Of a stretch of 63,432 bases of DNA, positions 39,703 to 62,221 are shown in pieces. Below the pieces are notes generated by a model. The model saw nothing but the letters and a program-made list of their open reading frames with translations, made no database searches and had not been told where the DNA came from. Position 1 is the stretch's first letter, and the number at the start of each line of letters is the position of its first letter. Both the position numbers and the translations under genes were made by a program. Source of the stretch: Rhizophagus irregularis (Eukaryota); NCBI RefSeq assembly GCF_026210795.1, contig NC_089433.1, positions 5,766,001 through 5,829,432 on the forward strand, in the 5' to 3' direction.

Positions 39703-40142
39703 AAGATTGTTCTCTGATGTCCGTAGGAAATATGATTTTAGAGCTGAAAAAGTTGTTGGTTGGTGTTACATTGGTGAACAAGGTATAGGGTGTCGTTTCT
39801 TTTATTTCTTACCTTCAAAAATATACGGATGGGTAATAATATTACTCATGTTCATTCGCTGTTACGGTAAAGAAAAAATTTAATGGTTGAAGATTAAAGA
39901 TAGATATCATTACGTAATTATGTAATTGTACGGTTTTTAAAAAGTCACGTGACATGTGATTATTGTGATATTTGATTTGTACTACATTATATACTTTTCG
40001 ATAGAAAAAAAACTCTTTCCGACGATCGTTAAATACCAAAAACTCACAGAAGAAATTTCCACCATAAAATACATTTCTTTATAAACAGTGTCATTTTTTT
40101 CTACAAATTTTGGTCTCTACGCTCTTCTCGGAACATTATCAT

Positions 40143-42389
40143 ATGAGTTTTGCTATAAGAAAAAAATTCTCGAACAAATTCCTGAAAAATATAGAAAAAA
40201 CCTATCGTCCTGTTTCCAACGACGAAGATATATATCGTACATACTCGTCACCCAACAAAAAATCCAACATGACTTCCAGTCAACCTATAGGTCCTACTCA
40301 GACTGCTAACAACGCTACAACGGACACAACTATGGAAGAAGCATCATCTTCCTCTCCCGCTCATGCTCTTTCGCACAGCGAAATTGAACTTACATCACGT
40401 GACTTACATGAAAAAGATATTCACACGCAAACACCAATCACTGAAATATTGACTAATATGGATGTAGATCCTATTATTACTAACACAGATAAAGGAAAAT
40501 CGCTGGAAACACAGTCAGCCACACAAACAAATACCCCTAATCCGTTACAAATTACGGTGCTAACAGATATATTTGAACAAACACCACAAGTTTCAAACAA
40601 AGCACACAAAGGATTTATTCCTAGAGATAGTTTCCCACCGAAACTCTCTAACAACGAAATTATCAATCTAATAAAAACGTCATTCATCAAGGATAGCAAT
40701 GCTTTTAGATTTGACGTCAATACAACATCCACCTACAGATATTTTACTATCTATTTCAGAACACGTGACTCGCTTGACTAATACATAGCAAAAAGTCCCG
40801 ATAACCTCAAACATGTAAAAATTTACGAACTCACCAATGAGGCTATCAACACATTAATAGAACAAAAATTCTCTAATCTAGACCAGGCTGTTATAAAAAT
40901 TATGGATATACCATACAACTACGATACATCCATGCTTATCAAGCACCTCGCTATAAAAACAGGCAGCAATATCATAGATCATAAAGAAATTAAAAAACCT
41001 CCAAGAAAGATTTCCAACCGCAGCACTCGCGGTCGCCCTATCTTCATAAAACCTGCTTACAAACAACTTATTGTCCGATTTGACAAACAAGCAGCATATG
41101 ATTATTTCATGAATGAAAACTATTGGAGCCTCGAAATCGAGAACTTCGTAGTAAGAATCTTACCTGGTAACCCCGATGATCCCGAATATAAGAAACGCAC
41201 CAGTCATTACTTCAAAATCACTGGTCTCCCACTCAATTCCACAGCTAAAGACATTGAACCTCTTATTAAACACGTCTACGGACGAACTTGTACATTTACA
41301 CAAACCACCAAATATTCAACCATGAAAAATGCCTATATTTACGTCTCACCAAACAATTATCCGACAGACGCGATCAATGGCGCCTCCTCACTTTTCGAAG
41401 GATACAATCTCCACGTCCTACCAGGACACCTTTCACTAAAGACATGTAATACTTGTGGATCACCACTCCATGAGGCAAAAAACTGCGACGACAAAAATTT
41501 CGACATCGATCAAAACAATCGAAAAATCTTCAAAAAACGATTTATTAATCGTAACGAAGAAAAAATTGCAATTAACGAAAACCACAGAGCTAGATTTAAC
41601 CATGTCATTACTCTGAATGCAAATAAAAGATCTCCCACGATGTCACAAAATCCTAAACCCAACCATACACCACCGCGCAACTACAACAACAAGAATAACC
41701 AACAATCAGGTAGCTTATTATATCCACGACAGACCAAACAACCATATAATAACCATAATAATTATGGCAACAATAACAAGGATTTAAAATATGATAATTC
41801 CTATATCGCCCCTCACCTGGACAATCCCCAAGTGACCGATATCAATCGTTCTGAACAACGAATTACACAATTGGAACAACAAGTCCAATCCCTCTTACAG
41901 AGTGTTAAAACACTCCAAGATGGAAAATCTAAAGTCGATAGTACTATCGCCGATATCCATCACAACCACAATTTAATGAGCTCTTCGCTCAATGACATCT
42001 CCACCAGACTTGACAAATACGACACAATTATCCAACAACTCACGACTAATATTAATTTACTTAGTCAAGAAAAGATTTCAGAACATAAAGAACGTAACGT
42101 CAAAACACCAAAATGACCGTCTCCATACGAACAATCCTCGTATAGAGTAACAAAAAATAGATACAACCTAAGAGGCAATAAACATGGTAATACCACAGCG
42201 GATGACAGCGAACAACCCTTGGCAACCGATGAAGACACCGATGCCCCCGACGAGGCCGTCATGTCAGACGGTGCCGTCTTTGAAGGAATCATTGATGAAT
42301 TGTCAAATACAACACTGACTGAAACTAAATTTTCAGTCAAATCCTACAATCCCCTTAACCTCCTCCCGCAGTTTAATGCGACACGTTAA
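40143..42389 (+). pseudogene. LINE ORF1 (gag-like; CCHC knuckle, coiled coil)
   Basis: One frame with two premature stops (TAA 40779, TGA 42114); CNTCGSPLHEAKNC = CX2CX4HX4C. Confidence 0.9.
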
Positions 42390-42519
42390 TTACGTGCTTA
42401 CCATTAAAACTTATATATCTCCTCTTTATTTTGGATATACTTTTTGGACTTCCCCATTTTGATTCTAACGGTTTAACATTTCTATACACATATTGATTCT
42501 CTTTATATACAATTTTATT

Positions 42520-45500
42520 ATGGAATACACCAATTTACAACCCCCGGCTGACCTCGAAAATCAGCCTTTTGCACCAGTTTTACAATATTCTCATACTAAA
42601 CATAACAAAAACACAAAATCACAAAAAAATTATAAAAAACCCCAAAACCACAAAAATATTAATCAAAACTTTCATACCCCAGACAATAATGATGCACCAA
42701 CAACAAGTTCACGATATTATATTTGTGAACCTCGTAATGATGAAGATGAAAATATGCTAAATTACATTGAACACCATTTATTTGATGACCAGGATACAAT
42801 AGCGTCAACGTCGTCTACCTCTCAAATACACGACACCCCCATATCAACATCTTCTCAATTACGAACACAATTTATTGATTACCATAAATTTGGTACAATT
42901 AATATTCAAGGAGGATTCAATAATAAATTGAATGATATCCTCCATTTTTTCACGCTTCATAATTATGACATACTTATTTTGACCGAAACAGGTCTCCACC
43001 AATATACTAATATAGATATGGACCTTAAGAAAGCAACACATTCAACGCATTCACTTCCAGTACTGAATAATGATAACATTATTCATAATATTCATTTTTA
43101 TATAGATGACAAAGGAAATACCAAAGGTAGTGGAGTTTCTATGATGATCACGGATCAACTGCAAAAACATATTATCAAAATCAACACCTTTCATAGCCGT
43201 ATTTTAACGGTCGATTTATGCTTTAAAGGCAATCATTATATCAAATTTATATGTTGTTATTTACCAGCTAATGCTGTTGACGACAAAGAATTGATTATTA
43301 AATGTTACAAAGAAATTGAAAACATTTTAATCACGGCTAAACACAATTATTTTGAATGTATAGTTTTAGGTGATTTAAATATTAGTTTCGACAAACTAAA
43401 AAAATCTAATCATTACCCTATTTGGAGACGTGAAATCAATACAATCTTTAAAAACTTTGGTCTTAGAGACTTACTTAAATCATTTCACGATCACCCGAGC
43501 CCGACGCATACTACTAAAAGGAAAGAAGGATCAGATATACAATCTCGTATAGATTACATCTTCACCTCACCTAATATCCTTCACTATAGCTTTTATGCTT
43601 ATACTCATAGTGTCTCTGAAGATTTTTTTACCACAGATCATCAGGCTCTTAGTTGCTATTTGACGCAAGATTATTTCAAAAACAAGTCTAACAGCTCTAG
43701 GAAAAGCTTAGAAAATTCACTCACATATAAACCTAATACAAACCCCAAAATTCAATTTAAATATCACTTAATGACCACAGAATCCTGGTCTGATTACAAA
43801 GTTACCAACGGTATTATTTATCGACAACATATTAATGATAAACCAACCCTACCGGATATAACACCAGAACAACAGATCGAATTATATTGGTCTAATATTA
43901 AAGATATTATCAAACAGACAAAAGATCGATGTATCCCTTCTTCCACATATAAAAAATACACGAAACATGATCGTCCATTATCTTTACAACAAAATAACAA
44001 CAAAATACTGATACTTCGTATGATTTTACGAAGATTTTTTAATATTAAAATTAATCGATTACAAGATGATCTTGACAAATGGAAAGATTATTGGAATACC
44101 TGGGATAAATCACGCAAATAAATTCTGGTTATCGACGTTCACTTTAACGCCAAACGTACTATTTGGCTACCATATACTTTGACGCCCAATAATATATCTG
44201 ACGTTAAAAAAGATTTACAAAGCCTTTTGCGTATATCTATTGTCCTACACAAACAAAAAGAAGATTCATGGACTATTAACAAAATTAATAGATATATTAA
44301 TGATAGGAATAATAATTTAATTCATAATCAAAAAAGGATGATTAATAGTATCCTTGACCGTAAACCCCAAAAAATAACATTAGATCGTTTACATTATTAC
44401 GATCATCAAACTAATCAATTTCAATTTACTAACAATCCTCATATTATAGCAGAACAAACTAATTTACATTTTCAATGTTTAGGAAAAGACCTTAACGAAC
44501 TTAATAATGTTAAAAAGTATAAGTCAATTCAAGACCTCCCGTTATATTGGAGATCAACCTATGAACCTATTAACAACCGTGATTGTAAACACATGACGTC
44601 ATTAGCGGATGAATTTTCAATTGACGAATTATCCCAAGTCATCTCATCACTTCCAAACAATAAAGCCGCAGGCATTTCCGGCATTACATACGAAGACATC
44701 AAACATACACACCAAGACTTTAGAGAATACATTAACAAATTTTTCAATTATATTATGCAGGTCCAAATTTATCCACGGGACTGGTTACATGCATTCCTTT
44801 TCCCTATACCTAAACCAAAGGCTTGGGATTGCAAAATAGAAAATACTCGACCTATAGTCTTGTTAGAAACGTTTAGAAAATTGTTTGTCAAAATTTTGAT
44901 ACAAAGGATTAACATCACGCTTACGACATACAACCTGATTAATGAAAACAATCGGGCTGGCCTAACGGGACAATCCACGTTACAACCATTACAAGTCGTC
45001 CAACATATAATTGAATCTGCTTATAAAGATAAAAAACAATTATGGATTGGTCTACAAGACCTCAGCAAGGCTTACGATAGAGTTAATTTATCTCTGTTAC
45101 GATTAGCATTAGAACGCCTACACTTTCCGACTACAATTACCACTCTTTTAATTTCTTTATTTAGTGATCGGAAAAATAATGTTATTTTACCTTTTGGTTT
45201 ATCTGCCGATTTTGATGTACTTCAAGGCATAGACCAAGGAGAAGTCATCAGCCCAATTGTATGGATTATTTATTATGATCCTATGTTCACATATTTGTCA
45301 CAATTAACCGAAAATTTACATGTCACCTCCGTTAACAAGATCAACAATATTTACCAACCTGACTCCGACCTACAGATTAATTATTCAGCATCTGTGGTGG
45401 GTTATCTTGATGATACCAGCTGGTTTGCTTCTTCCAAATCACAATTGGAATCCAACCTCCAAATAGCAAATTCTTTTTATGACATGGCGAACATCACTAT

Positions 45501-48500
45501 CAATCATGACAAATATATCATCCTTACCAACAACCCTAAACTTTGTAATAAGGAGTTACAATTCCAGGTCACCCCTGACAAATCAATAATGATTAAAACA
45601 GCGTCACGGGCCTCATCTAACCGCATTCTTGGAATCTACATTAACGCATTTAATTCACATACGCCAACGCTAAAGAAGATTAAAAAAATAGTTAATCATT
45701 TTGCGTATACAATGCGTTTTAAAAAAATAACTCACGACCACCTTATTTATATTATTAACAAAGTATTATTACCCAAACTGGAGTATATCAATCAATTTAC
45801 TATTTTCACACGTTCGCAATGTGATTCTTTATTAGCTCCAGTTAAAAAACTTTTTAAACAACATTTAAAATTACCAATTTCTACCCATAATAATATTATT
45901 CATAACAAATTATTTCCCTCCATTAATAGTTTTTTTTATAACCAATTTTATTCACATATATCAATTGTTAACGTTATTTTCAACACTCCCATGTTTTCCA
46001 CTATTGGTTTACAAAAGATTTTGAATACACAATATGATTTTTGGATACCGAATTTTCCAACGTCCAAAGACCTATCTAATCCTATTTCTTCAAATTATCA
46101 ATCCCTTTTAACCCGACAATTACGTCTCTTTAACAAGTTTTATATAACTTTTTTACCACACTGTAACACGTCTATCACAGGTGGTAGTAACTCTATAATA
46201 TCGTATTTTAATTCACATGATTCTCTCGATACTTTATCCAGTAACGACCTTCAAAGTTTACGGAAAAAACGTATAATGTTTATGGATCAATTAACTTCCC
46301 TCGACGGTTCTTTTCTAAGTACCTGGAAAGACGTCAAAAAACAAAACCCTAAGGCAAATTTTAAAGGACCTACGCCCAAGTGGTTTCAAAACCTTGAACA
46401 ATTTAATATTCTGGTGGATGACAGTTCACGACGCCTATTACGAAATTTGATAGTTTCGCCTCCGGCCAGATTTGACTCTATGTCTCCCCCTTTACGAAAA
46501 GCTCATAAATACCGCCCTAAGAATGAATGGACCATTTCTTGGGACATGGTACACCAGTGTGAATTATATGGCTAAGGTTGCTTGTCTAAACCTCTTCAAA
46601 ATCCTACGATTAGTTTCGTCAAAATTTTACTATAGATTTATTATAGTTTCGGCAGAGTTTCGGCAGTTTCGGCATTTATAATAAGTTTCGGCAGTTTCGC
46701 CTTTCTCCAAAGTTTCGCCAGTTTTTTAATATAACTTTAATATAGTTTTGGCAGAATTTCGCTTTTCAGCAAAACGCCATCTTGCCTAAACCCCTAGGTT
46801 TCGGCAAGCAACCTTATATATGGCAAGACGATTGAACAACAAAATGATTTATATGGTACTAGCCTTACTTACCGAACACATTATCTTCCTGTGGTTAATG
46901 CAGATATTAGAACCAATTTAACACCCAAAAGAATAACCCCTATTTTACATCCTTGTACAGGACTATGTGGTCATAGTGTACCTTTTAGTGGTGATCTACG
47001 TCCAAAATGTGTTATTGTTTCTTTAACATCACATTTGATTCTTTTTAAAGTTCATGCAAAAACTTTTATACCTAATAAACCTTTTATAAAATTAGAGAAA
47101 TTTTTTATTTTTCCAGTTACACCTTTACATACCCTTCGTACTCAAGCGTTTACATATAGTAAATATAGATTAATTACACCCAATGTTTTACCTCCAACGA
47201 TTCCTGTTTTATCTTCTTTGGACTCATATTTAAATGAGAATTCTTTATTATTTACTAATAATTTGATCAATTTAAATTTAAATATCTCTTCTTCCCTTTT
47301 TATTAAAAATATTTTCGTAGGAAATAGAGATTTAATTATTCAACTTTTAGAAATAGCTAAACAATTTTTGTCACGGAAAAAATTTATTTTTTATACTGAT
47401 GGTTCCTTTGCTTCTATAGATGTTAATTCTTCTACTCAAACTCAAATGGGTTTTGCCTGGATAGAGATTACTGATATAACTCCTGATTCCAGTTCTCCTC
47501 CACCAATATACAAAGGCGCTTTATCTTTTAATCCGTCTTCTACCAAAGCAGAAGTTTATGCGCTTTTAACAGCCATTATTGCTGTACCTGATGCGAGCGA
47601 ATTGGATGTCTTCACAGACTCGCTGAACGTTATTCATACTTTCCATACAGTTACTAATAAATTAACCTCCACAAGAAGAACGTTGAAATGCAATAATCAC
47701 CTAGCGTGGCGCCTAATAGACACGTTAATTACGAAGAAATCATTAATCGTCCGTTTACACAAAGTCAAAGCTCACTCCAATAATTTTTGGAATGATATGG
47801 CTGATAATTTAGCTAATGCTACACGACAACTGGCACCCTATGAAATCAATCCCACAACTTTACCGGGTTCTTTATTGACCCCTATTTGGGCTTCTATAGC
47901 GCCGATTGACCGTGATATCAGAAAATTTTGTCACAATTTAACAGATGTTTACACTTTTAATCAATTTTTGGGTAATTCTTCACTCTCACCCATTTTTGAT
48001 AGATTCCCCTTATCCTCAATACATTGGCCTCTAACTAGAGCGTGGTTGCAATTTAATTCCACACCGGATGTATGTAGCTCCACCAAATCCTCACACCACG
48101 CCTATCGAATTAAAGCACTTAATCATATACTTCCTTGTGGTGATGTTCTTACCAAACATTACCCTGATTTCTACCCCAATAATTATATACCCTGCCCGGT
48201 GTGCAATGACCATCAAGATACTAATGAACATTTGGGAATTTGTTCAAATCTTTTACCTGTAATTAATCACATTTTAGTGGAACACAAGAATATACTACAA
48301 CGTCTCCTTGAGGAGCATACTTCGTACAATCCTGCCCTCATCACACAATCCATCGATCAGTTGGATCTTTTATCACCGATCTCGGAGTCGAACTCTTACA
48401 CCCATCCAATATATTTAATTATACACCAACTTATTTCACAAGATTTTTATAACCTTGTGCGGTCTTTTACCTTTAATGATAAACTTACCCGTTCCATCAT

Positions 48501-49002
48501 ATGGGAATTCTTAATCTTATTTCACGACCAAATCTATCAACAAATATGGCCTAAACATTGTTCTTTGCTGAAATTGTGGGAACAACGTAATGGAATCACA
48601 CCCAAACGCAAACGTGATTTTCGTAAGAAAAAACCTAGGAACTCACGTGATCACCAAACAGCACAGCTTATTACTCAACCTAGAATTGTCTCTACTTCTT
48701 TTCACGGATCACAAAATCTCTCTCCGCCTAGAGCTAGGACGAACTTTTCACCTTCAGATGGTATTTCTCGCCGTTCATCCCACCCTTGGACTTCTTCGGC
48801 CCCGTCTACTCGTCCTTCTCACTTACCGCAACTACCGATGTGGTTGATTTTGTGCACATGTAATTTTTTACATTCCGGTGGATGGTTATCTTCTGTCCGG
48901 CATCCTAGTAGTTTTGAGTTAAATATAGATAATTTTTCTTCTTCATGTAATTTTAATTTTAATTTTTTTAGTTCTTCCTTTTCTTTTGATCGTACTTTCT
49001 GA
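42520..49002 (+). pseudogene. LINE ORF2: AP endonuclease, reverse transcriptase, RNase H, C-terminal Zn finger
   Basis: APE: TINIQG, LTET, GDLN, SRIDY, TDH; RT: PIPKP, RPIVLLE, DLSKAYD, QGEVISP, YLDD; RNH: YTDGS, AE, TDS, VKAH, NDMAD; CPVC...HLGIC; one stop (44119) and one MITE insertion. Confidence 0.95.
46573..46816 (+). mobile_element. 244-bp hAT-like MITE, copy 4, inside LINE ORF2
   Basis: Same TIR; 8-bp TSD TATATGGC; removal gives in-frame ...ELYG-KTIEQQNDLYG...LPVVNAD. Confidence 0.97.
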
Positions 49003-49384
49003 ACTCCCGGTTATGCCTGTTTGTTCGGTTGAATAATGGGCAAGACGACCCCTTCGGGCTTCTTCCGAGAGGTTGGGTATAACACTAGCTTAGAATTCAT
49101 TGATCTCTTAGACCATGTTTATTCCTATTTAGCGTTCGACCCCAGTCGAGTCTATATTTTAAAAATAAAAAATAAAAAATAAAAAAAAATACTTTTCGAT
49201 ATACCTGATACGCAAAACGTCAAAACGTGAAACTTTTTTTTTGAAGTATAATATTGAAGTATTATATTTACACTTTATACTTTTTAATTTTAGCAATGAG
49301 CTCTAAGACATTACAAAGTATAGAAGGTAAGTGTTTATTTATTATTTTCTTGTTAAATTTTTAAGTTTTTTTTCAAGTCTAACG

Positions 49385-50030
49385 AACAGGGCGGACATGC
49401 ATTATATCACAATGTCGATCACTTGCCGATCATGATATAAGTGATATCACGTTAAATTTGAAGCTTTATTCCAAGCAATAAATGTCCTGACAATTTATGT
49501 TAAATTATTTTATTTAATAGTTTAATTTACCAATAAATTAATATAAAAGTATTGTGGCAAAATAAGGTGTGTTTCCAAAGTTAGATTTTATGTCAAATTT
49601 TCAATAATTAATATATATGCTATATATATGCCGATCATCTGCTAACGTGACTTTGAAGCTTTGGGCGAAGCCACAGATCTTCGGGCGAAACTTGAAACTT
49701 TTACAGTATATTATTTAGGTATTCAAGAATCAATGGCTAAAATAAACCTGGATAATTTTTGATAACCCAAAAGTTATCATTAAATAAATGCTTACAATTA
49801 TTGTAAAATTAATATATGTCTGATATTTGACAAAATCTTTATGAATTATTTTAAGAACTAATTTATTAACAATAAATAAAATAAAGTAAATAAAATCGAA
49901 ATTTTTTACATCATTATGTAGAATTTGTGAAAAAACTAATTCAACGGTATTTTTTTATGTGATAATATTAGACAAGTGATCGGCAAAATGATCAGCAATA
50001 TCGTGATAATATGGGGATGTCTGCCCTGTT
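49385..50030. mobile_element. Non-autonomous MULE-like element (646 bp) inserted in the MULE left TIR
   Basis: AACAGGGCGGACAT ... ATGTCTGCCCTGTT, imperfect ~50-bp TIR; 9-bp TSD AGTCTAACG (49376-49384, 50031-50039). Confidence 0.9.
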
Positions 50031-50183
50031 AGTCTAACGTTACATTTTGCTTATTGTTTTATTGACTTATTGATACAAAAAATGAAGAACATAATTACTA
50101 AGTGAAAATAATTGTAATATTATTATATTTTACTTATACCATACATTAAAAACCTAATAAAGAATAATGAATAAAAAGGTAAT

Positions 50184-52856
50184 CTAGCTGTTTATATTTT
50201 TCTTTATGGATTGGGATAAATTGTGCGATAATTTTGAAATTTTTCTCTTTTTCCTAGATGGCATCATATTAGGATCATTCTCTTTAGAATGTTTACGCCT
50301 TTGGATTGAAGCTACTTGTACTGGAATTTTGCGATTTTTCACATTAAATCTTGAATCCAAATTTTGATAATTTTGGTGTAAATATGATACTAGTTGTCCA
50401 TTAGATGTATTCTTAGCTTTTTCATACCCCTTTTGAAAACTTTCCATGCCTAATAATAATTGATCGTTATTTGTAACATCTTGATAAACAGAATCAAGAA
50501 ATTCTTTAATTAACTTGACACGATATTCTCTATTTTGGTGATTAAGTTCTAATTCCGAAGATCTAAAATAAAATATCATAAACACTATAATATCAGACAA
50601 TTTATTTAAAAATTTAAGCATTATTATATATACCTTGCAAAGATTTCCGATGAGTTCGTATCTAACAATCTCAGTGCATTATTTTCCAATAAATTTGCAT
50701 GATTATTTTCTGATGGGCTTGCATTGTTATTGTTATTTTCCAATGGGCTTTCTGGACTTTCTGATGGATTTGTATTATTATTTTCCCATATATTATTTAT
50801 GTTACTATCATTTCCTAATATGTTTGTGGCGTTATTTTCTAAAAAATCCTTAGTTTTTATTTCAGCATGAAATTTTACATAAAAGGATTTGTCCATTACA
50901 CAAATGCCTTGTGCGATATAAGTATAACACATCAAAAATAATGAAGGTATATAGTTGATTGATGATTAATGGCCACAGCTGCTTGATGTTTATAAGGCCC
51001 TCCTGCATTACCTTTCGGACATGTGCATATACCAATATTTGAATCAACTATATAAAATATATCTGACTTTGACGTACTTTGAACATAATACATATGTTCA
51101 ATATTAGCAGAAACAATTTTATTTTGGTCAACAGATTCCCACCTTGGACAAAAAAACCTTTTTGAAATACTGTTTAATTGCTTATTTGCAATAGCTAAAA
51201 GCTTCCTTTCATAAAATCTTTCCATATTACCAATAATAAAAAAATAAATTTGAATAGGATTATAAGCTTTAACTCTACTAAAAATAATATCTTTTATAAT
51301 TCCAAAGCTCCTTTCTACATAATTATTTGTATGATTTCCTCTTGTTGAAGCACCATTACGAAATGATACTGCCCAAAATTCTCTTCTTTCCCAAAGGAGT
51401 GAACAATGCCTTGCCAATTTAGAATACTTATTATACCATTGTAACTGGAATTTCTGGTATTCAACATTCATAATATTTTCTGAATTGGCATATAAAATTC
51501 TTTTAAAATCTGAAATAACTGTTGAACGATCATCTTTTTTAATTTGGTTATTAGCATTCCATAGTCAACGCCATAATGCTTGTAGCACATGAAATATACA
51601 AAGAAACCTTTTTGAATTTGGCCAGCAAAGTTCAATAGCATTACGTTCAGCTGCAGAATCATCAGTCATAAACATAGAAGGATCTAGATCTACTCCTCGA
51701 CCAAAAAATGCATTTGAAGGTAAAATACTTTTTAATTTATTAATGGCAAATTCAATTGTAACTTCTGATTCATCAGAAGTTAAAAAAAGATCAAAAGGAA
51801 GCGCACCAGCAACACAACTGGTATATAATAACGTAATTGAAGTATTTAAAGGATCAAAGCTAGATGATGCATCAAAATAACAGATCTCTCCTGCCTGTCT
51901 AATTTTTTCATGCACTCTTTTCATTAAATTAGTTACAATAGCAAGAATAAATGGTTGCCCAAGTTCTTTATTATATTCACATAGTATTGCATTTCCTAAT
52001 CCTGAATTATAACTTCTTCTTTTAATTTTTCAAACATTCTTGATCCATTACTTGCACCTAAATTAATTTCTCTATATTTTTTAAAGAGATTGTAAACAAA
52101 ATTATAGTCTGAATTTGTTGCTCGGTCAGCCAACAAAGTAATTAATTCCTTTTCATTAGCAGCTGCTAAATGTAAATTATCTTCATAAGTATAAATTGCA
52201 GTTGCTGGTGAGTAACCATTTTTAAATAATTCAATATATTTATCTCAGGTAATTTTGCTAACTGGGCGGAAGCTAAGTGATTCAGCTGAATATGGAATAT
52301 GATTATATATATATTTAATGTGTACATGCATTATTAAATTTTTTTTTTCAATGCGCATTAACATTTTGGATTGACAATTAATATTACGTGTACGAAGGCT
52401 ATTTTCTTGTTTACTAGTTCTTGAACCCTGTTTTGTTTTTACAGTTTTACTATGTATACAATGCCTTTCTTCTTTAAAAACAATTTTTTTTCCTGTTATA
52501 GTTTGCTCTCTAGTTATACATATTGTAGTCTTTGATTTTTCTTAAAATTTTTCAAACCATATCAATGCATCATCTTTTGTTTGAATATTTATTAATAAGT
52601 CAAAGATAAATTGCTTTAACTCTATATCTTTATCAGTAAATAATGATGGAAGTATGTCCATTTTTTCAAGCTGATATTTATAATCACAAGGCAAAATTTC
52701 TTTTAAGTCAGGTGGCAATTCGGACTCTAATAAGCAAAATGTAACGTTAGACTTGAAAAAAAACTTAAAAATTTAACAAGAAAATAATAAATAAACACTT
52801 AATAAACATAAAAATAAAACTATACCTTCTATACTTTGTAATGTCTTAGAGCTCAT
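50184..52856 (-). pseudogene. MULE transposase with SWIM finger, degraded
   Basis: CYFDAS...FMTDDSAAERNA...LCIFHVLQA...TNNYVER; SWIM CTC-x7-[Y]KH (Cys lost); exon 1 52856-52826, intron 52825-52727; stops and frameshifts. Confidence 0.9.
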
Positions 52857-54399
52857 TGCTAAAATTAAAAAGTATAAAGTGTAAGTATAATACTTCAATA
52901 TTATACTTCAAAAAAAAATTTTCGCGTTTCGTATATCGAAAAGTATATAATGTAATACAGATCAAATATCACAATAATCACATATCATGTGACTTTTAAA
53001 AAACTGCACCCACAAAACGGGAGTGCAATTGTACAACTGCTTCTATCATGTAATCTTAGATATTTGCATCAGGAACTTATAAAATTTTCGAAAGCAATTT
53101 ATCAAAAGAAATCAAAATTTTTTGCCCAAATCAAAATTTTTTGCAACAAGTCACATATTAAAATAAATCACATGATAATATTATTATTGGTTCTAGATAG
53201 ATATTATCATGTGATTACATTCAGTAAGCTGGAAACCTGAAGTTCAAAATTCGAAACTCTTCATAATTCCAGCCAGAGACACCTGGTGACTTGAGCTTAA
53301 TTCTGGCCAAAATCAAAATAAATCGAAATTTTTAGTCAACTGAAAGAAATTTTAATTCAAATTGAAATAATATTTACTGGGCTAAAATAAATGCTATAGC
53401 AATAGTATATATAAAACATGCACACACATTTAAAAAATTTGAAGTAAAATCTTTATTATATTTTTGTAAAGTAGTACATGAGAAAGGGTCGGCCAGTTAA
53501 GTAAAAAATGAAACTAATAAGAGATATTGGAGTAGCAGATTGTTTCAAGGAAAGAATTTTGCTAAGCCCCAACCCATATAATGGCAGTTCCTTCCCTGCT
53601 ACTCAGTAACGATGTAAAATCAAGTTGGATAATTGATTTATATAGATATAAGGATATAAAAATTATTAATTATTTTGGTACATTGTGATCAAATTTTGAT
53701 TTCATCGGGAAATTTTTTAAGATGCAGAACTGCGGAGATCTGTAAAATTAGCAGATCTCCGCATTTTTTTTGTGAATTTATGTGGAAGTCTGTGATTTTG
53801 CAGATTTCTGCTTTTTATTTTTTACAAAGTTATGCAATAATCTGCAATTTTGCAAGTTTCCGATTTTTATGTATGAATTTCTGCGGTAATCTGCGATTTT
53901 GCAGATTTCTGCTTTTTTTTATGTGAAATTTATGCGGAAGTCTGCAATTTTGCAGATTTTTGCTTTTTTTTCATTAAAATATCAGTTCGATCTGCAATTT
54001 CATCATTGATTTAATATTTAAACTTTAATTAACTCTAACTTGATTTAATACCTAAATGATTTTTTCTACAATACTCTTTAAAAAGAAAAACTTTACAAGA
54101 CTTTAAAAAAATAATTTTTTCTACAACACTTATTACTAAAGAAAAAAACTTTGTGAAATAATTTTTCTACAACACCTTTTAGGAAATAATCTGTTAAAGA
54201 TTCCAAAGAAAAAATATTTCTATTATTTTTTAAGCTTCGAAACTTATCAGAGAAATTTTTTTTTTAAAAAAAAAAATTTATTTGTAAGGTTCGGAGTCTT
54301 TAAGGCAAATTTGTCTAACATTCGGCACATAATCTATGCAACATGCAGGGAAATTAGAACTAAAAAGAAGTCGTATTCCTTTTTTTTCTTTGAAAAAAA

Positions 54400-57300
54400 A
54401 AATTTTTTTTAATGAACGTCAGTTAACGTTCAGTTTGTAAGTCAAGAACATAATAGAGTCTATTGTCAATTTAATTTGGAGGTATATCACCTCTGAAACT
54501 TTAATTATTTTTAGAGAAAAAAAAATTTTTTTATATTATATAGGTTCCAGATGGAATCTATCGATGATTTTATTTGGAATTCGGAGGTATGCTTACCTCC
54601 GAAATTTAATTTATTTTTTTTAAAAAAAAATTTTTTTTTTATATTATATAGGTTCCGGATAGAACCTATCAAAGATATTGGAATTCGGAGATATGCTTAC
54701 CTCCGAATCTTAATTTATTTTTTTTAAAAAAAAATAATTTTTTTTATATTATATAGGTTCTGGATGGAACCTATTAAAGATATTGGAATTCGGAGGTATG
54801 CTAACCTCTGAATCTTAATTAATTTTTTTTTAAAAAAAATAATTTTTTTTATATTATATAGGTTCCGGATGGAACCTATCAAAGATATTGGAATTCAGAG
54901 GTATACTTACCTCCGAATCTTAATTTATTTAAAAAAAAAATAATAATTTTTTATTTATATTATATAGGTTCTGGATGGAACCTATCGATGATTTTGAAAT
55001 TCGGAGGTATATTAACTTCCAAATCTTTAATTTATTTTTTAAAAAAAAAATAATTTTTATTATATTATATAGGTTCCGGATGGAACCTATTGATGATTTT
55101 TGGAATTCAGAGGTATGCTTACCTCCGAATCTTAATTTATTTTAAAAAAATAATTTTTTATTTAACGAACGCCACTAACGTTCATTTTTCATATTTTTAA
55201 GTCCTGGAAGCCAAAGTACGGCTCAGGACATTTTTTTTTAATTAAGTTATCTAATGAACGTTGCTAACGTTCGATTATAGGTCCTGGACGCCGAAGAACA
55301 GTTCTGGACATTTATTTTGAAGGTAAAACCTTTACTTTCAAAATTTTTTTTTATATTTTTGTTTAACGAACGTCGCTAACGTTCATTTTTTATTTTTTTT
55401 TAGGTCCTGGATGCCAAAGTACGGCTCCGGACATTTATTTCGAAGGTAAAATTTACCTCCGAATTTTTTTTTATTTTATTTATACCTACGAACATTAATT
55501 TACGTTCGTTTTACATTTTATAGGTTCTGGACGCCAAAGTACGGCTCCAGACGTTAATTTCGAAGGTAAAACCTTTACCTTTGATTTTTTTTTTATTATT
55601 ATTTAACGAACGTTAATTAATGTTCGTTTTTATATTTTATAGGTCCTGGACGCCAAAACCAGCTCCGGACTTTACTTTGAAGGTAAAACCTTCGAAAAAA
55701 AAAATTTTTTTTTTTGTTAACTTTATTGACGAACGTTAACTAAGTTTCATCTTATTTTTTTAGATAAAGGAAGCTGAAACTGAGTTCCGGGCTCCTATAT
55801 CGAAGGTAAAATAAACCTTTAAATTTTTTTTTCTTTTTATTTAAACGAACGTTCACTAATGTTCGTTATTCTTTTTTTTTAGGTAAAGGAAGCCGAAAGA
55901 ACTTCCATATCGAAGGTAAAATCTTCGATTTTTTTTTTATTATTTTATTTAATGAACGTTACTAATTCTAATATTCATTTTTTTATTTTTCGTAGGTACA
56001 ACCGTACAAGAAACTGAAAGGCAGGTTCCGGTCTCCTATTTTGAAGGTAAGGCTTCGAAATTTCATTTTACTTTTTTTCTTTTATTTTAGCGAAATGTTT
56101 ACTAACGTTTCGTTTTTCTTTTTTGTAGGACTACAGCACTCTGGACGCTTCGTGGGCTCCATTTCGAAGGTATATTATCCTTTATATTTTTCGAAAGTGT
56201 TTATTTTTATTAGTTTTTTTTACAAACGTTAACTAACATTCGTTTTCATTTTTGTAGGTCCAAGACGCCGAAAGTACGTGTCTCAGATTCAATTTCGAAG
56301 GTAAATAACTTCAAAAAAAAAGGAGTCTCTTTTTTTTTTAACGAACGTTCACTAACGTTCGTTTTTCTTTTTCTTTGTAGGTCCAGGACGCCGAAGGACT
56401 TTAATTTCGAAGGTAAACTTCGATTTTATTTTTATTTTTTATTTAATTTTTTTTTGTTTATTTTAATGAAGCATTATTAACGTTTCAATTTTCTTTTTTT
56501 AGGTTTCTGGCTCTCCTGAATTCTCCTGGACGGAATTTCAAGGTATTTCTTCAAAATTCTTTTATTTTTTTTATTTTATTGTTGTAAAAGAACGTTTCTA
56601 ACGTTCTTTATTCTTTTTTTTTTAGATTTTTGGCTCTCTGGTTTCAGCCTGGACGGAATTTTCAACATGGTTAGTTTCGTAACGAACTTTTCATTACGAA
56701 ACTATTTTTTTTTTTATTTTATTTAAACGAAACGTTACTAATGTTTTGATTTCTTTTTCTTTTGTAAGTTTTCCGGTAGCCACCTGGATTGGACGGGATT
56801 TCAAAGATGAAACTTCGAAATTATTGTATTTTCATTTTTTATTTGAACGAAATGTAGACTAACATTTCGATATTATTTTTTCGTAGGTTGACGGCTTCAT
56901 AATACCCTTTCTTGAAAGAATTTCGAAGGTATACTTCGAAATTCTTTTACTTTTTTTATTATTTTTGATGAAACGTTACTAATGTTTCGTTTTTTCTTTT
57001 TTTTGTAGGTTGACGGCTTCCTGTGAACCTTTCCGATTACAACATTCAAAAAGAATCCACTCTTCCATCTTTCTCCGTCTTCGTGGCGATATGCAAATTT
57101 TTGTTAAAAAACTATTACTTTGGAAGTTGAGTCTTCTGGAATGAATTTTGAAGGTAAACTTTGAAATTCTTTTACTTTTTTTGTTTTTTTTTATTTGAAC
57201 GAAATGTTTACTAACGTTTCAATTTTCCCTTTTTACGGCTTTCCAGATGCCTCCTGGATGAAATTTCGAAGGTAAAACTTTGAAAAAATAATTTTTTTTT

Positions 57301-57831
57301 GTTTTATTTTAACGAACGTTCATTAACGTTTGTTTTTATTTTTGTAGATCCAGGATGCTGCCGGACTTCCATATTGAAGGTAAAACCTTCGAAAATTATT
57401 TTTTATTAATTAATTTATTGACGAACGTTAACTAACGTTCGTATATCTTTTTTTTTAGGTAAAGGAAGCCGAAAGACAAGTTCCAGACTCCCATATCGAA
57501 GGTAAAACCTTTCAAAATTATTTTTTATTAATTTATTTGACGAACATTAGTAACGTTCATATTTCTTTTATTTTAGGTCCTGGGTTCCCATTTAAAGAAC
57601 TTCAAAGGTAAATACTTTGAAGTTTCTTTTTTTTTTACTTCTTTAATGATCGTTATACTAATGATCGTTTTTTCTTCTATGTTTAAGTCCCAGACTGCTG
57701 GGTTAGATATTTCGAAGCTGCTTGCTTCGAAATTTTTTTTCGTTTGTAGGTATCCGTTGTTTGTTGGAATCGAACTAACTGGAACAATGTCCAAACCATT
57801 AACAACATGTAAATGTGCAGTAAAGAGATGA
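54400..57831 (+). repeat. Tandem array of ~28 intron-like repeats separated by mostly 30-50 nt variable micro-exons
   Basis: Unit ~105-125 nt: YAG|exon ending TTCG(A/G)AG|GTA...T-tract...AACGTTNNCTAACGTTCG...T-tract YAG (branch hairpin evident from ~55145 on). Confidence 0.85.
57029..57138 (+). pseudogene. Captured polyubiquitin fragment spanning a monomer junction
   Basis: Translates with small indels as LSDYNIQKESTL-HL-LRLRG(D)/MQIFVK--TITLEVESS. Confidence 0.92.
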
Positions 57832-60301
57832 TGAATAGCAATGACTAGTAATAGATTTCAATTGTATTTGTAAACTTGTTAATATATAATAAAAAAGTAA
57901 TTTTGATTATATAAATAAATTAGTAATTAATGCAATAAATTAATTTGTATTATTGTGACGCAGATTTTTACTGAAAAAAATTGCTGAGGTATTTCGAAGG
58001 TTTTTATTTAAAAATCTGCGCAGAACTTTGTTATTTATAAAATCTGCGCAGTTTTTTATTGGATTTTTCCTCTAATGTTTTGCGCCAGGGTATAAGATCT
58101 GCGCAGATATAATTTCTGAAAATCTGCGCAGATCTGCTCCCCAAAAAATTTCCCGATGTTAAGAATAAAATCAAATTGCTACTTCTTACCATTTTAGACA
58201 CTAACAATTGTGATTTTATTTAAAATAATCTATAATCTTTAATAAATAAATTCCAATATTTACAGTGATTTATGGAAAAAGATTTCAATATTATAACAAT
58301 ATAATTGTCGTGATTAAAGTCACTGGTTAAATGATGAGATATCGGGTTGTGACATATCAGATAAAATCGGAAAAATATCATAAACTGATATGCCACTAGC
58401 AGATCATTTTAAAAATTGAACATAGATTAGTAACCGATAGGCAAGTGATATTTATATGATTATAAATAATTTTTTTAAACTCATATCAACAAGTTATCTG
58501 GTTCTTATTGGATATCTGATAAATTATTGATTTTTATATGATAATAATATAATATTTATATAATATTTATATTATTGTACAAATAATTTTTTAAGATAAT
58601 CGTATTTGAAGTGTTAAAATTTTAGAGTTTTGCCATAGTTTCAGCATTCCAATCTTTTTACTGTATAATAATTTTTTTAATTTCAAACGGTTACCAATAA
58701 ATCTATATGTAATTAAAATTTATTGTAAAATTATTTATTGTAATATTTTTATTTTATTGTATGTAATAAACTGATTTTTTATTGATAAAGAACTTAATTA
58801 ATGATATATGTTGAAGTTCACGTCCTAAAGTAAAAAAAAGAAATATTAATACATTCATTTCTTTGAAGCAATTAAGTAAAACTCCCACTCATACTATCTT
58901 CAAGTCTGGGTTCGATTAAGAATATCTGGTAGAAGAAAAAAAATTAGAGTAAATGTTAGTAATATATAATATATTAATAAAAAAGAACCTCCTCTTCCCT
59001 CTAACTTACATACTTAAAATTCAAATTCGGGTTCATCCAAGAAGTCTAAGGAATATAAATATATTTTTTATTCCTATGCACACACACACCCACCCATCCC
59101 ATTCACCTGTCTGGTTCACGTCCCTACAAAAGACAAGAAATCTAAGAAGCTCAGCATCCTAAAAAATTAGAAAAAAAAACATTAGTATTGTTTCTTTAAT
59201 GAATTAAGCTTTATTTTTACATGTACTGTACATATAACACTCACTTTTTACTTGTATAGTTTATTCAAGTCCGATGTTTGACATCTTACAAAAGAAGAAA
59301 TCCAAAAAGTTGTCCTACAAAAAAAAAAAGTACGGATAAATAATTTTTTTAAAAAAAAATTATCAATGATCAGTAAATTAATTAGGAACTGATCGGAAAT
59401 ATGTATATCATATGATTATGGAGTAATAGAGTCGTATGCATACTCCTTTCCTCTTCTTTTTTTTTTTTAGGTTCAGACCAGTAAGTTAAATATATATATA
59501 TATATATATTAATAAATAGAACCTTTTCTTTATTCTTTTTTTATAGCTTCTGGTCCTCTTTTAAACGCCATTCAGACTGGTAAGTTTAAAAATTTTTTTT
59601 TAAATAGAAGGTGTATAGGCATATACTAACCTTTTACTTTTTTCTTTTTGTAGGTTCTGGACCTTTTTTATACGCTGTAAGTTTTAAAAAAAAATTTTTT
59701 TTTAAATAGAAAGTGTACAGTCAATTCCTTCTATAGTCACTCCCATTATAAACACATTCTACTATATAGTCATACCAGTTAAATGTTCAAAACACTTTAT
59801 TATTAAAATCTATCCTATATAGTCACAATCTATCTATAGTAACTATCACACCTATCCTCAAAAATCTTATATTAAAAAGAACCGTTTATAATCACAGTTA
59901 TATAAAGAATATATTAAATAACTTGACATCTAATAATCGTATAAAAATATATCATAGCTTGTTAGAATTGTCTTACTGAGACGAATTGAATAGTGGTAGT
60001 TTTATCATTTTACTTTGCTAGTGTTAATAGCCAGACCTCCCATTGCCTCTTATGAGACTAATCTCGGGTCTGTGTCCTATCATCTCCATGGGTAACCATT
60101 AAACTGAGTACTTAATTCCTCAGGTAACAGCACCACTTGAAGACATCTCCCATCGGGTCATTTTAGGCTGATCTGAAGCTAGGTACACGCCGCCTACTTA
60201 TCTTATATCCATTGCATGATACTGGTACTCAATTTATTTTACGACCTTTAGAGAGCACCTACTTTCATGGAGGACTTTCAACAGGTAATATCAACCATTT
60301 A

Positions 60302-61141
60302 CATCAGGAAATTTTATAGTGCGAAAAATTGCGTAAGTTTACGATTTTGTAAGTTTACGAAAGTTTATGGCATAATATTTCGAAAAATTTCAAAATATTA
60401 CGTAAGTTTACAATTTCGTAAGATTTATGTGATATTACGGTTAAAATATTACACAAGTTTTCAATATCGTAAGATTTACGCAATATTACGGTTAAAATAT
60501 TTTGAAAATTTACGAAACTGTAAACCTGCGTAATATTACGATTAAAATATTTCAAAAATTTACGAAACTGTAAACCTGCGTAATATTATGATTAAAATAT
60601 TTCAAAAATTTACGAAACTGTAAATCTGTGTAATATTACAGTTAAAATATTGCAAAAATTTACGAAACTGTAAACCTGCGTAATATTACAGTTAAAATAT
60701 TTTGAAAATTTACGAAACTGTAAACCTGCGTAATATTACGGTTAAAAATATTTTGAAAATTTACAAAATTGTAAACCTGCGTAATATTATGGTTAAAATA
60801 TTTCAAAAATTTACGAAACTGTAAACCTGCGTAATATTATGATTAAAATATTTCAAAAATTTACGAAACTGTAAATCTGTGTAATATTACAGTTAAAATA
60901 TTGCAAAAATTTACGAAACTGTAAACCTGCGTAATATTACAGTTAAAATATTTTGAAAATTTACGAAACTGTAAACCTGCGTAATATTACGGTTAAAAAT
61001 ATTTTGAAAATTTACAAAATTGTAAACCTGCGTAATATTATGGTTAAAATATTTCGAAAATTTACGAAACTGTAAACCTGCGTAATATTACGGTTAAAAT
61101 ATTTTGAAAATTTACGAGATTGTAAACCTGCGTAATATTAC
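60302..61141 (+). repeat. 50-bp tandem repeat (~16 units) following a CATC-type TIR
   Basis: Unit GTAATATTACGGTTAAAATATTTCAAAAATTTACGAAACTGTAAACCTGC; preceded by CATCAGGAAATTTT, similar to the TIR at 53703. Confidence 0.9.
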
Positions 61142-61549: not shown

Positions 61550-62221
61550 CGCTCCAGGTAAAAAGTATCCAGACCATCTAAAAATTAAAAAATCTTAAAA
61601 AATTCAGTGGGCCCAACAATAAATTTATATTTATTTTAAAAGTTTGAGCATGAGACACTTTTTAAAAGTGTTTTTTTAGCTTAATTATTAGTAAAAATTG
61701 GCGGACATTTTAATTAAAAATGGCAAAATTCTTAACTTTTTAACTAGAAACATTACGGCCAAATGAATTCCAGAAATCAATTCTTTGACTAAAAAATAGC
61801 TTATGTTTAAAAAATCAGAAAGATTGGACTGGTAGTTGCCGAAAAATCCACCACTGAAGATCATAATTTTTATATGTAAAAACGGTAAAATCACCATTTT
61901 TGCCAAATTTTAGTATAAAAATTATGATCTTCGTGGTGGATTTTTACGGCTACGTCCAATCTTTCGATTTTTAAACATAAGCATAGTCCAAAGTTGATTT
62001 CTGGAATTCGATTTGGCCGTAACTGCTCTATTAAAAAGTTAAAGCCATTTTTGAATTAAAAATGTCGCCAATTTTTACTAATAATTAAGCTAAAAAAACA
62101 CTTTAAAAAGTGTCATCATGTCTCAAACTTTTAAAATAAATATAAATTTATTGTTGGGCCAACTGAATTTTTTAAGATTTTTTAATTTTTAGGGTGGTCG
62201 GATACTTTTTACCGGGGAGTG
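61550..62221. mobile_element. Fold-back Tc1/mariner-like MITE (672 bp)
   Basis: TA-CGCTCCAGGTAAAAAGTATCC ... GGATACTTTTTACCGGGGAGTG-TA; the two ~320-bp arms are reverse complements. Confidence 0.9.

Follow-up and report, generated by a model that had tools for sequence, protein, structure and literature searches.

Contig NC_089433.1 of Rhizophagus irregularis (RefSeq assembly GCF_026210795.1) contains, within the 63,432-nucleotide stretch analysed here (positions 5,766,001 to 5,829,432, hereafter the window), a tandem array of about 28 units, each made of a micro-exon and a short intron, and we find that most of these units place their splice signals, the 5' splice site (donor) and the branch site, in small hairpins. 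Across the wider family to which the array belongs, hairpins recur at just these two signals, and their arms co-vary over more than 100 units from 14 loci. The array is the interior of a repeated element with inverted ends, a context that a preliminary description of this DNA, made from the sequence alone, had missed. Our tentative interpretation is that hairpins in the primary transcript gate the access of U1 to the 5' splice site and of U2 to the branch site; the palindromes may also be a property of the DNA itself, and this is the main rival against which the interpretation has to be weighed.

Each unit of the array consists of an exon of 25-51 nt (145 nt in one case) followed by an intron of 62-107 nt, and exon lengths are mostly not multiples of three. 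Donors take the form AAG|GTAAA or GAG|GTATG, and introns from position 55113 on contain an ACTAAC-type branch motif, a T-rich tract and a TAG acceptor. CTAAC, CTAAT or TTAAC lies 13-26 nt upstream of the AG in these later units, as in U2-type introns, and no clear branch motif was found in the six early 105-bp units. Alignment of 19 later units gave a mean column identity of 54%, with conserved columns bunched at the exon end plus donor and around the branch motif.

The two hairpins have a regular geometry. At the donor, the last 7-14 bases of the exon pair with intron positions from about +6 to about +20, placing the GU in the loop or atop the stem, while in the branch helix the 5' arm, 8-11 nt long, pairs from the AAC of ACTAAC on, with nACU as the loop and the branch A as the second paired base. 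All 27 donor contexts of the window, folded from -14 to +26, yielded a stem holding or abutting the junction, 20 of them at -7 kcal/mol or lower, and most introns from 55113 onward are predicted to form a branch hairpin of 5-11 bp. Seven whole introns folded together with 14 nt of exon reached z scores between -1.9 and -6.3, and for five of the seven none of 200 dinucleotide shuffles folded as well. The arm sequence AACGTTCGTT, with at most one mismatch, has 29 matches against 4.7 expected, and TTCGAAGGTA has 31 against 4.4, in both cases nearly all in the array. The four stems quoted in the preliminary description are all found in their places (Table 1), and the shift from GGAG/CTCC to GAAG/CTTC that it reported is real, with an intermediate GAAG/CTCC form carrying an A.C mismatch at 55439-55463. 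Its general statement that donor and branch point lie in hairpins holds for most units but not for all, as the early 105-bp units are without a branch hairpin and the GT has been lost in four units (54691, 55241, 56809 and 57718).

A pattern scan of metagenomes returned 16 further loci, of which 13 (GC 0.25-0.33, from soil) carry the same type of array and three (GC 0.41-0.54) are chance matches. Introns were parsed by splice motifs alone, giving 136, or 122 once locus L014 had been dropped as a near-duplicate of L016. Of the 122 introns, 58% reached a helix score of at least 7 at the donor and 49% did so at the branch site; the corresponding shares in dinucleotide shuffles were 6.1% and 2.5%, and control sites in the middle of the intron gave 10% in both real and shuffled sequence. 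Introns with 14 nt of exon averaged z -3.0, with 73% below -1.64, whereas exon bodies were unstructured (mean z -0.27). Because the signal is present at donor and branch site and absent from mid-intron and exon bodies, the palindromes are specific to the two splice signals. Exon-internal hairpins had been noticed by eye in the units at 55281-55682; given the unstructured exon bodies, these are not a family trait.

The helices themselves are diverse. Distinct helices make up 63 of 71 at donors and 54 of 60 at branch sites, and the variants include GAAGCATT/AATGCTTC, which is without the usual hexamer, CGAAATATT/AATATTTCG and AATGAACGTT/AACGTTCATT. Some arms are 14-15 bp long with a sequence specific to the unit, and loop lengths span 3 to 10 nt; the Watson-Crick share within stems is about 94% (885 of 943 pairs at donors, 766 of 817 at branch sites). 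Hairpin frequency differs with the type of donor, at 70% of 88 GTAWWW-type donors, which have no G at +5, versus 26% of 34 GTRAGT donors. At the branch site the loop is kept as nACT where exons are present but varies freely (TTTT, AAAA, AATA) where this palindrome forms an array without exons, indicating that the loop is constrained by branch function and the arms, separately, by pairing. No role in splicing or coding is known for the donor arm that lies in the intron or for the 5' arm at the branch site, yet both are as conserved as the splice signals.

The preliminary description had also proposed that the arms co-vary. In the window alone there are few independent compensatory events, and several of the paired changes are CpG decays, which are able to pair up by chance; over the whole family, by contrast, covariation is strong in the branch helix and modest in the donor helix. 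We joined the upstream half of each unit to the downstream half of every unit and folded the products. The minimum free energy averaged -9.40 kcal/mol for a donor with its own partner and -7.27 for swapped partners (z -10.4), and -6.55 versus -4.32 kcal/mol for branch sites (z -13.1). Exchanging partners within a locus (-7.32 at donors, -4.69 at branch sites) gave no better fit than exchanging them between loci, so that a unit's own arms are about 2 kcal/mol better than arms drawn from the same array. This advantage is not predicted by shared ancestry with independently evolving arms.

Column-wise tests agree for the branch helix. Among 24 branch sequences of equal length, 82.6% of cells were paired against 73.6% after shuffling (0 of 500 shuffles as high), the covariation score was 0.320 against 0.152 (0 of 500), 9 of 12 pairs had changed on both sides (4 of 500) and 20 further pair types were seen against 15.9 (14 of 500), while controls with the arms slid out of register were 25-52% paired. 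Pairs are thus kept through changes on both sides, above both the phylogeny-blind and the slid controls. With the register set by the inner 4 bp alone (43 of the 122 units), positions 5-11 contained 224 Watson-Crick pairs, whereas 3000 shuffles gave 183.6 +/- 6.8 and never more than 205; at position 8 the pair types were G-C 21, C-G 5, A-T 4 and T-A 3. Part of the branch signal is a one-base insertion in both arms (CGAACG/CGTTCG versus CGAAACG/CGTTTCG), which is itself a paired change. In the donor helix, positions 4, 8 and 11 co-vary among 31 distinct anchored sequences (0-2 of 2000 shuffles as high), and the inner 8 bp hardly vary. RNAalifold, suggested at the outset as a check, returned no structure on a MAFFT alignment of 109 branch segments, since register and loop length vary; as MAFFT had placed the loop gaps at the sequence ends, only equal-length subsets were scored.

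We compared the array with contigs of three sequencing runs over 55166-56418, namely X18 and X20, whose status as RNA is guessed, and the DNA run X4, which comes from a different organism; no run matching the stretch is on record as RNA, though several with a small share are marked as possible RNA. Most contigs are 90-95% alike and so stem from a paralogue or a different strain. Contigs of X18 and X20 join successive exons at six exact GT..AG joints (Table 1) and two approximate ones (55446-55523 and 56301-56380), all at predicted borders, whereas none of the joints occurs in the X4 contigs over this region. Since the joints fall exactly at predicted GT..AG borders, the units of this family very probably contain genuine spliced introns. 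X20 also includes unspliced contigs (records 12 and 15) beside spliced ones. The RNA-like contigs connect consecutive exons and show no exon choice, which leaves the earlier suggestion that the structures regulate exon inclusion without support.

In the window, 15 of 17 later exons are open in the frame ending ..I/L-S-K. Some metagenome arrays are open across 5-7 exons (75 of 75 codons in L008, 79 of 80 in L009 and 63 of 63 in L016), with p 0.02-0.10 against mononucleotide shuffles, and homologous exon ends are read in different frames. By eye, the frame of the last exon in L011 (about 1135-1400) stays open for about 88 codons past the array (..KERNDWDPKWPQTYPWL..).

The array occupies the interior of a larger unit. 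Positions 53703-58158 of the window are a single 4456-bp copy of a multicopy element with CATCGGGAAATTTTTT inverted repeats at both edges, the outermost 16 nt being identical at its two ends. This 16-nt motif also bounds the arrays of 8 metagenome loci; it closes those of L005, L006 (at both ends, 3.9 kb apart), L007, L011 and L015 and opens those of L014 and L016. Beyond it the DNA is unrelated at each locus, and the orientation of the array between left and right ends is constant at every end seen. That 422 contigs of X4 align on 1.25 kb of the array shows the family to be multicopy. Terminal inverted repeats common to many copies with unrelated flanks are as in a non-autonomous terminal-inverted-repeat (cut-and-paste) DNA transposon; no matching flanks indicating a target-site duplication were present at the window copy or at L006, and no transposase lies within 53703-58158. 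Both subterminal regions are composed of CpG-centred palindromes.

How might such hairpins act? In the interpretation that we tentatively prefer, each intron of the primary transcript would fold into two local stem-loops. The donor stem would pair the exon end with intron positions of about +6 to +20 and leave GUA in or beside the loop, and the branch stem would display nACU in its loop with the AAC, including the branch A, paired, so that U1 and U2 would have to open or invade the stems. As the donor helix of the main class spans the exon-intron border, it can exist only before the first splicing step. The effect would presumably be kinetic, pacing spliceosome assembly on introns that lie about 40 nt apart, such that the splicing of each intron of about 80 nt is paced or insulated from its neighbours; one possibility is that weak GUAAA-type donors pair locally and not with the near-identical neighbouring units. 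Selection on founder copies would have preserved the fold. Five observations favour an RNA role: this limit on when the donor helix can exist, the location of the helices only at the sites of U1 and U2, the keeping of complementarity and not of sequence, the branch loop held as nACT where exons are present, and the association of hairpins with donors that have no G at +5.

In a bolder form, which we consider quite unlikely, the sole cargo of the element would be a self-contained splicing device, each intron gating both of its sites with co-evolving hairpins and thereby controlling how the host spliceosome handles the transcript. Such a device could help the element to escape spliceosome-coupled silencing or could soak up splicing factors, and modules that combine a hairpin with a splice signal could seed new introns and micro-exons upon amplification or movement.

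Selected RNA structure was among the proposals of the preliminary description and is still the best reading of the hairpins, but a series of results weighs against it. Wobble pairs are not in excess: the 115 distinct helices have 22 G.T and 18 A.C mismatches in their interior (p 0.64), and the helices of the window alone have 9 and 7. A looser count of 46 G.T to 26 A.C vanished once duplicates and helix ends had been removed. Nor do the stems of this copy change more slowly than other sequence. Compared with L006, a sister copy about 90% identical over 56804-57848, substitutions number 13 in 156 positions of donor stems, 14 in 144 of branch stems, 37 in 364 of other exon and 43 in 381 of other intron, and CpG decay affects 12 of 31 sites in stems and 5 of 15 outside; with rates so similar, the stems of this copy drift like everything else. 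Just one paired change (56853 with 56864) was seen among the 27 stem changes, and as about 0.8 would be expected from chance CpG decay, it proves nothing. The spliced product of the window is closed in all three frames, which speaks against an active role of this copy. The smaller donor set, of 12 sequences, reached no significance on the robust measures, with 10 pair types against 9.6 and 5 both-side changes against 4.0, and the 24-, 31- and 12-sequence sets were all chosen by a helix finder, which inflates their paired percentages; the swap and site-specificity tests are free of such a choice. The RNA nature of X18 and X20 is, as stated, a guess, and the DNA run compared was not from the same organism. 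With its closed frames, four lost GTs and drifting stems, the window copy is probably an inactive, decaying relic. We infer that the covariation of the family arose in founder lineages and that private mismatches are later neutral decay, which would account for the absent wobble bias.

In the main rival the palindromes would be a property of the DNA, made, extended and repaired by template switching during replication and promoting slippage and tandem amplification, with the RNA hairpins as a passive by-product that the spliceosome tolerates. The strongest case for it is in L006, where positions 604-1722 form a tandem array that has no exons at all and in which branch-type palindromes recur about every 43 bp, at least 21 in number; its three variants differ by paired changes (ATCGAAACGTT-N4-AACGTTTCGAT, AACGGAACGTT-N4-AACGTTCCGTT and ATCGGAACGTT-N4-AACGTTCCGAT), and it holds 95 CpG against 15 expected. 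The element ends are likewise rich in CpG-centred palindromes. Template switching is able to generate perfect stems and to fix their pairing, according to the relevant part of one study (PMC8794818), and would explain multi-base paired changes and the extension of arms, here unit-specific and up to 14-15 bp, without stepwise selection. The parity of G.T and A.C mismatches and the pace at which sister-copy stems evolve also fit a DNA-level origin. What such an origin leaves unexplained, at least in the portion of that work dealing with its examples in rRNA genes (PMC8794818), is the restriction of palindromes to two splice signals and their absence from mid-intron and exon bodies. Nor should a rare mutational process alone hold stems at about 94% Watson-Crick pairing in units that are 54% identical, and the comparison with L006 yields no surplus of paired corrections, with its single paired change in 27. 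The earlier proposal that DNA palindromes are tied to the duplication of units is still viable: a branch-type palindrome does occur alone in tandem in L006. On balance we regard a purely DNA-level origin as rather unlikely, if by some way the most serious alternative.

The exon-less stretch of L006 has a further peculiarity. It contains one AG against 32 expected. A hairpinned donor precedes it at 598 and an acceptor-like site follows near 1722, and the whole stretch may be one intron of about 1.1 kb.

A connection with genome defence seems improbable. The hairpins would mark the transcript for silencing, through stalled spliceosomes that feed RNA interference, or would shield it by hiding target sites of small RNAs in stems. 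In Cryptococcus, the stalling of spliceosomes on transposon transcripts reportedly triggers RNA interference. The present array is the cargo of a multicopy element with defined ends, its spliced product has no consistent reading frame, and unspliced contigs accompany spliced ones in X20, all of which would suit such a role; yet nothing ties the hairpins to silencing, and stems of 8-14 bp are too short for Dicer.

It is more improbable still that no structure has been selected at all and that the stems descend from one palindromic founder unit, with exon end, donor and branch consensus each conserved separately. Variation is indeed scarce in the AACGTT cores and in the innermost 8 bp at the donor, the exon end would once have been coding (..ISK or ..FRR), with 15 of 17 later exons open in one frame, and CpG decay produces paired changes by chance at about the number seen between sister copies. 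However, the intron-side donor arm and the 5' branch arm are conserved like the signals although no splice or coding role is known for them, the advantage of own over swapped arms is not predicted by shared ancestry alone, and the family includes paired transversions and paired one-base insertions. Least probable of all is that the palindromes are double-stranded DNA sites bound by a protein dimer, for instance an accessory DNA-binding protein belonging to the transposon, with paired changes reflecting symmetric half-sites: the cores are indeed CpG-centred self-complementary hexamers (TTCGAA and AACGTT, with TCTGCGCAGA at the ends) that recur many times within one element, but a single array contains many arm sequences, some lacking the hexamer as in GAAGCATT/AATGCTTC, so that complementarity is kept and not a motif, and a fixed dimer would not be expected to tolerate loops of 3-10 nt.

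Stem-loops at single 5' splice sites are known from human MAPT exon 10 and SMN2 exon 7 (TSL2) and from the autoregulation of yeast RPS14B and RPL30. As in those genes, the exon end in the array pairs with the first bases of the intron, and U1 would compete with a local hairpin. Those cases are single sites in host genes, often bound by protein or involved in alternative splicing, whereas the array has dozens of introns per transcript, adds a second hairpin over the branch site and lies within a repeated element. Long runs of very short exons are a feature of the micro-exon genes of Schistosoma, whose symmetric exons are multiples of three and encode secreted proteins; the array shares the runs, but most of its exons are not multiples of three.

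Yeast introns offer a second comparison. Zipper stems there connect the 5' splice site with the branch point, and downstream stems connect the branch point with the 3' splice site, in each case shortening the distance, as outlined in part of one report (PMC12350175). The array resembles them in having conserved intron structure near splice signals, and in yeast, judging from the sections at hand of this and a second report, the stems affect splicing (PMC12350175, PMC12311795). The helices of the array are local, each enclosing one signal, and no complementarity from donor to branch site was seen, unlike the yeast stems as those sections present them.

Introners, in the excerpts consulted, are likewise mobile elements with inverted repeats that supply functional splice signals (PMC9860276, PMC12130899). 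As described there, one introner makes one intron of a host gene, whereas the present element holds about 28 introns with micro-exons of its own and small inverted repeats inside the introns; as it is not removed whole as one intron, we rejected the idea that it is itself an introner. The symmetrical stwintrons and sister introns of Hypoxylaceae share with the array the similarity between introns, an internal symmetry, possible double-stranded RNA and a link to intron proliferation, as far as the relevant passages of their description extend (PMC8469720). In these passages, terminal inverted repeats of 45-55 nt pair the intron ends, and the introns are dispersed in host genes without target duplications; the array instead has two separate hairpins of 8-14 bp per intron, and its copies stand in tandem inside an element. 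Short tandem repeats in an AT-rich soil organism are also a feature of the repeat-encoding effector genes of arbuscular mycorrhizal fungi, both SP7-like (PMC11333574) and for repeat proteins processed by Kex2 (PMC6339444), in the parts of these works that treat them, and some exon ends of the array read ..RR in one frame. SP7-like effectors are there characterised by a signal peptide, Y[KR]Rx[AP]x[AP] repeats and a conserved intron before the first repeat (PMC11333574, same parts). An SP7-like effector gene was rejected for the array: that motif is found in none of the three frames of the spliced product, which has no open frame and no signal peptide.

Literature searches on arbuscular mycorrhizal microexons, Rhizophagus intron hairpins and fungal introners, supplements aside, brought up no earlier account of two-hairpin introns in a transposon-borne micro-exon array, which is not proof of absence. 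Single splice-site hairpins are established as gene regulators; here a two-hairpin design recurs in more than 100 introns with natural compensatory variants, providing a ready-made series on how local RNA structure affects the recruitment of U1 and U2 at very short introns and exons. Its location within a multicopy element links intron architecture, tandem amplification and mobile DNA, and the array offers a test of whether selection or template switching underlies paired stem changes. If the DNA-level alternative is true, the array is a warning that covariation at splice sites can arise without RNA function.

Table 1. Coordinates of the element, its array, hairpins and spliced introns in the window
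Feature	Position	Strand	Basis or remark
Left terminal inverted repeat, begins CATCGGGAAATTTTTT	53703-53739	+	84% complementary over 37 nt to 58122-58158
Left subterminal palindromic repeats, period about 49 bp, ..ATCTGCAATTTTGCAGAT..	53731-54000	.	Tandem Repeats Finder and sequence
Tandem array of about 28 micro-exon and intron units	54441-57750	+	Curated borders; repeat periods 105 and about 120 bp
Early units of 105 bp, with donor hairpins (10-11 bp) but none at the branch site	54473-55154	+	Repeat, fold and stem scans
Donor hairpin TTCGGAGGTA-tgct-TACCTCCGAA	54580-54603	+	Fold of 54573-54651: -20 kcal/mol, z -5.0
Intron spliced out	55323-55403	+	Joint 55320>55402, GT..AG, X18; absent in X4
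Intron spliced out	55566-55642	+	Joint 55563>55641, GT..AG, X18
Donor hairpin TTTGAAGGT-aaa-ACCTTCGAA, one T.G	55676-55696	+	Sequence
Intron spliced out	55806-55882	+	Joint 55803>55881, GT..AG, X18 and X20
Intron spliced out	55916-55995	+	Joint 55913>55994, GT..AG, X18 and X20
Intron spliced out	56047-56128	+	Joint 56044>56127, GT..AG, X18
Intron spliced out	56170-56257	+	Joint 56167>56256, GT..AG, X18
Branch-site hairpin AACGAACGTT-cact-AACGTTCGTT; branch A is base 2 of the 3' arm	56340-56363	+	Fold of 56287-56380, z -4.3
Branch-site hairpin variant AAAGAACGTT-tct-AACGTTCTTT; C-G to A-T	56587-56609	+	Sequence
Branch-site hairpin variant CGAAATGT-agacta-ACATTTCG; C-G to T-A since the split from L006	56848-56869	+	56853 T/C, 56864 A/G
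Donor hairpin of 14 bp, AAAGAATTTCGAAG-gtata-CTTCGAAATTCTTT	56915-56947	+	Fold z -6.3
145-nt exon with frameshifted polyubiquitin-junction fragment	57009-57153	+	LSDYNIQKESTL = ubiquitin residues 56-67, exact match
Donor hairpin variant AAAGAACTTCAAAG-gtaaata-CTTTGAAGTTTCTTT; G-C to A-T, T-A to C-G	57594-57629	+	z -4.3
Branch-site hairpin variant AATGATCGTTA-tac-TAATGATCGTT; A-T flipped to T-A, two G.U	57645-57669	+	L006 has the CpG-intact form
Last exon, about 50 nt common to L006 and L011	57751-57840	+	Sequence comparison
Right subterminal repeats of palindrome TCTGCGCAGA	57960-58121	.	Sequence and end comparison
Right terminal inverted repeat	58122-58158	-	Pairs with 53703-53739

The 145-nt exon stands apart from the rest. 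After frame shifts it reads LRLRG-MQIFVK and then KTITLEVESS, which we take to be the junction between two ubiquitin units; Pfam gave no match on this exon. The sister copy L006 carries the same polyubiquitin piece (about 2820-2900), so its capture is older than the split of the two copies. On the opposite strand of the last exon (57760-57810, also in L011 and L006), the sequence GTTGG-TTCGATT-CCAAC looks like the T-arm of a tRNA. ARAGORN found no tRNA there and Rfam nothing at this place; searched with Rfam 15, the stretch gave sub-threshold matches only, the best at 29 bits against a gathering score of 130.

Ahead of the array, a leader GGCAYATAATCTRYGCAACATGCAG (54330-54352) is common to two subfamilies of the element (about 880-905 in L016) and may be part of a promoter or of a first exon. 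The leader of L016 forms an additional perfect palindrome, ATAATCTGCA-aca-TGCAGATTAT.

The window, AT-rich with a GC of 0.22-0.37, holds several other mobile elements. A retroelement of the long interspersed nuclear element (LINE) type occupies 40110-49002 on the plus strand, with endonuclease, reverse transcriptase and RNase H domains in consecutive open frames, a GC of about 0.33-0.37 and a strongly negative GC skew. Next to the array element lies a Mutator-like element (49223-52929), whose inverted ends of about 160-185 nt are 91-100% complementary and differ from the ends of the array element; relatives of its minus-strand frames have MULE, Transposase_mut or SWIM domains. Another element of the superfamily to which the array element belongs begins at 60302 (60302-61141) with the end motif CATCAGGAAATTTT, followed by 14 copies of a 50-bp TTACG-rich repeat, as in L014 and L016; after this start no micro-exon array occurs up to the end of the window, and other insertions break the element up. 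At 61590-62200, two long inverted arms (about 61600-61720 and 62020-62190) look by eye like a separate small insertion of the foldback or miniature inverted-repeat transposable element type.

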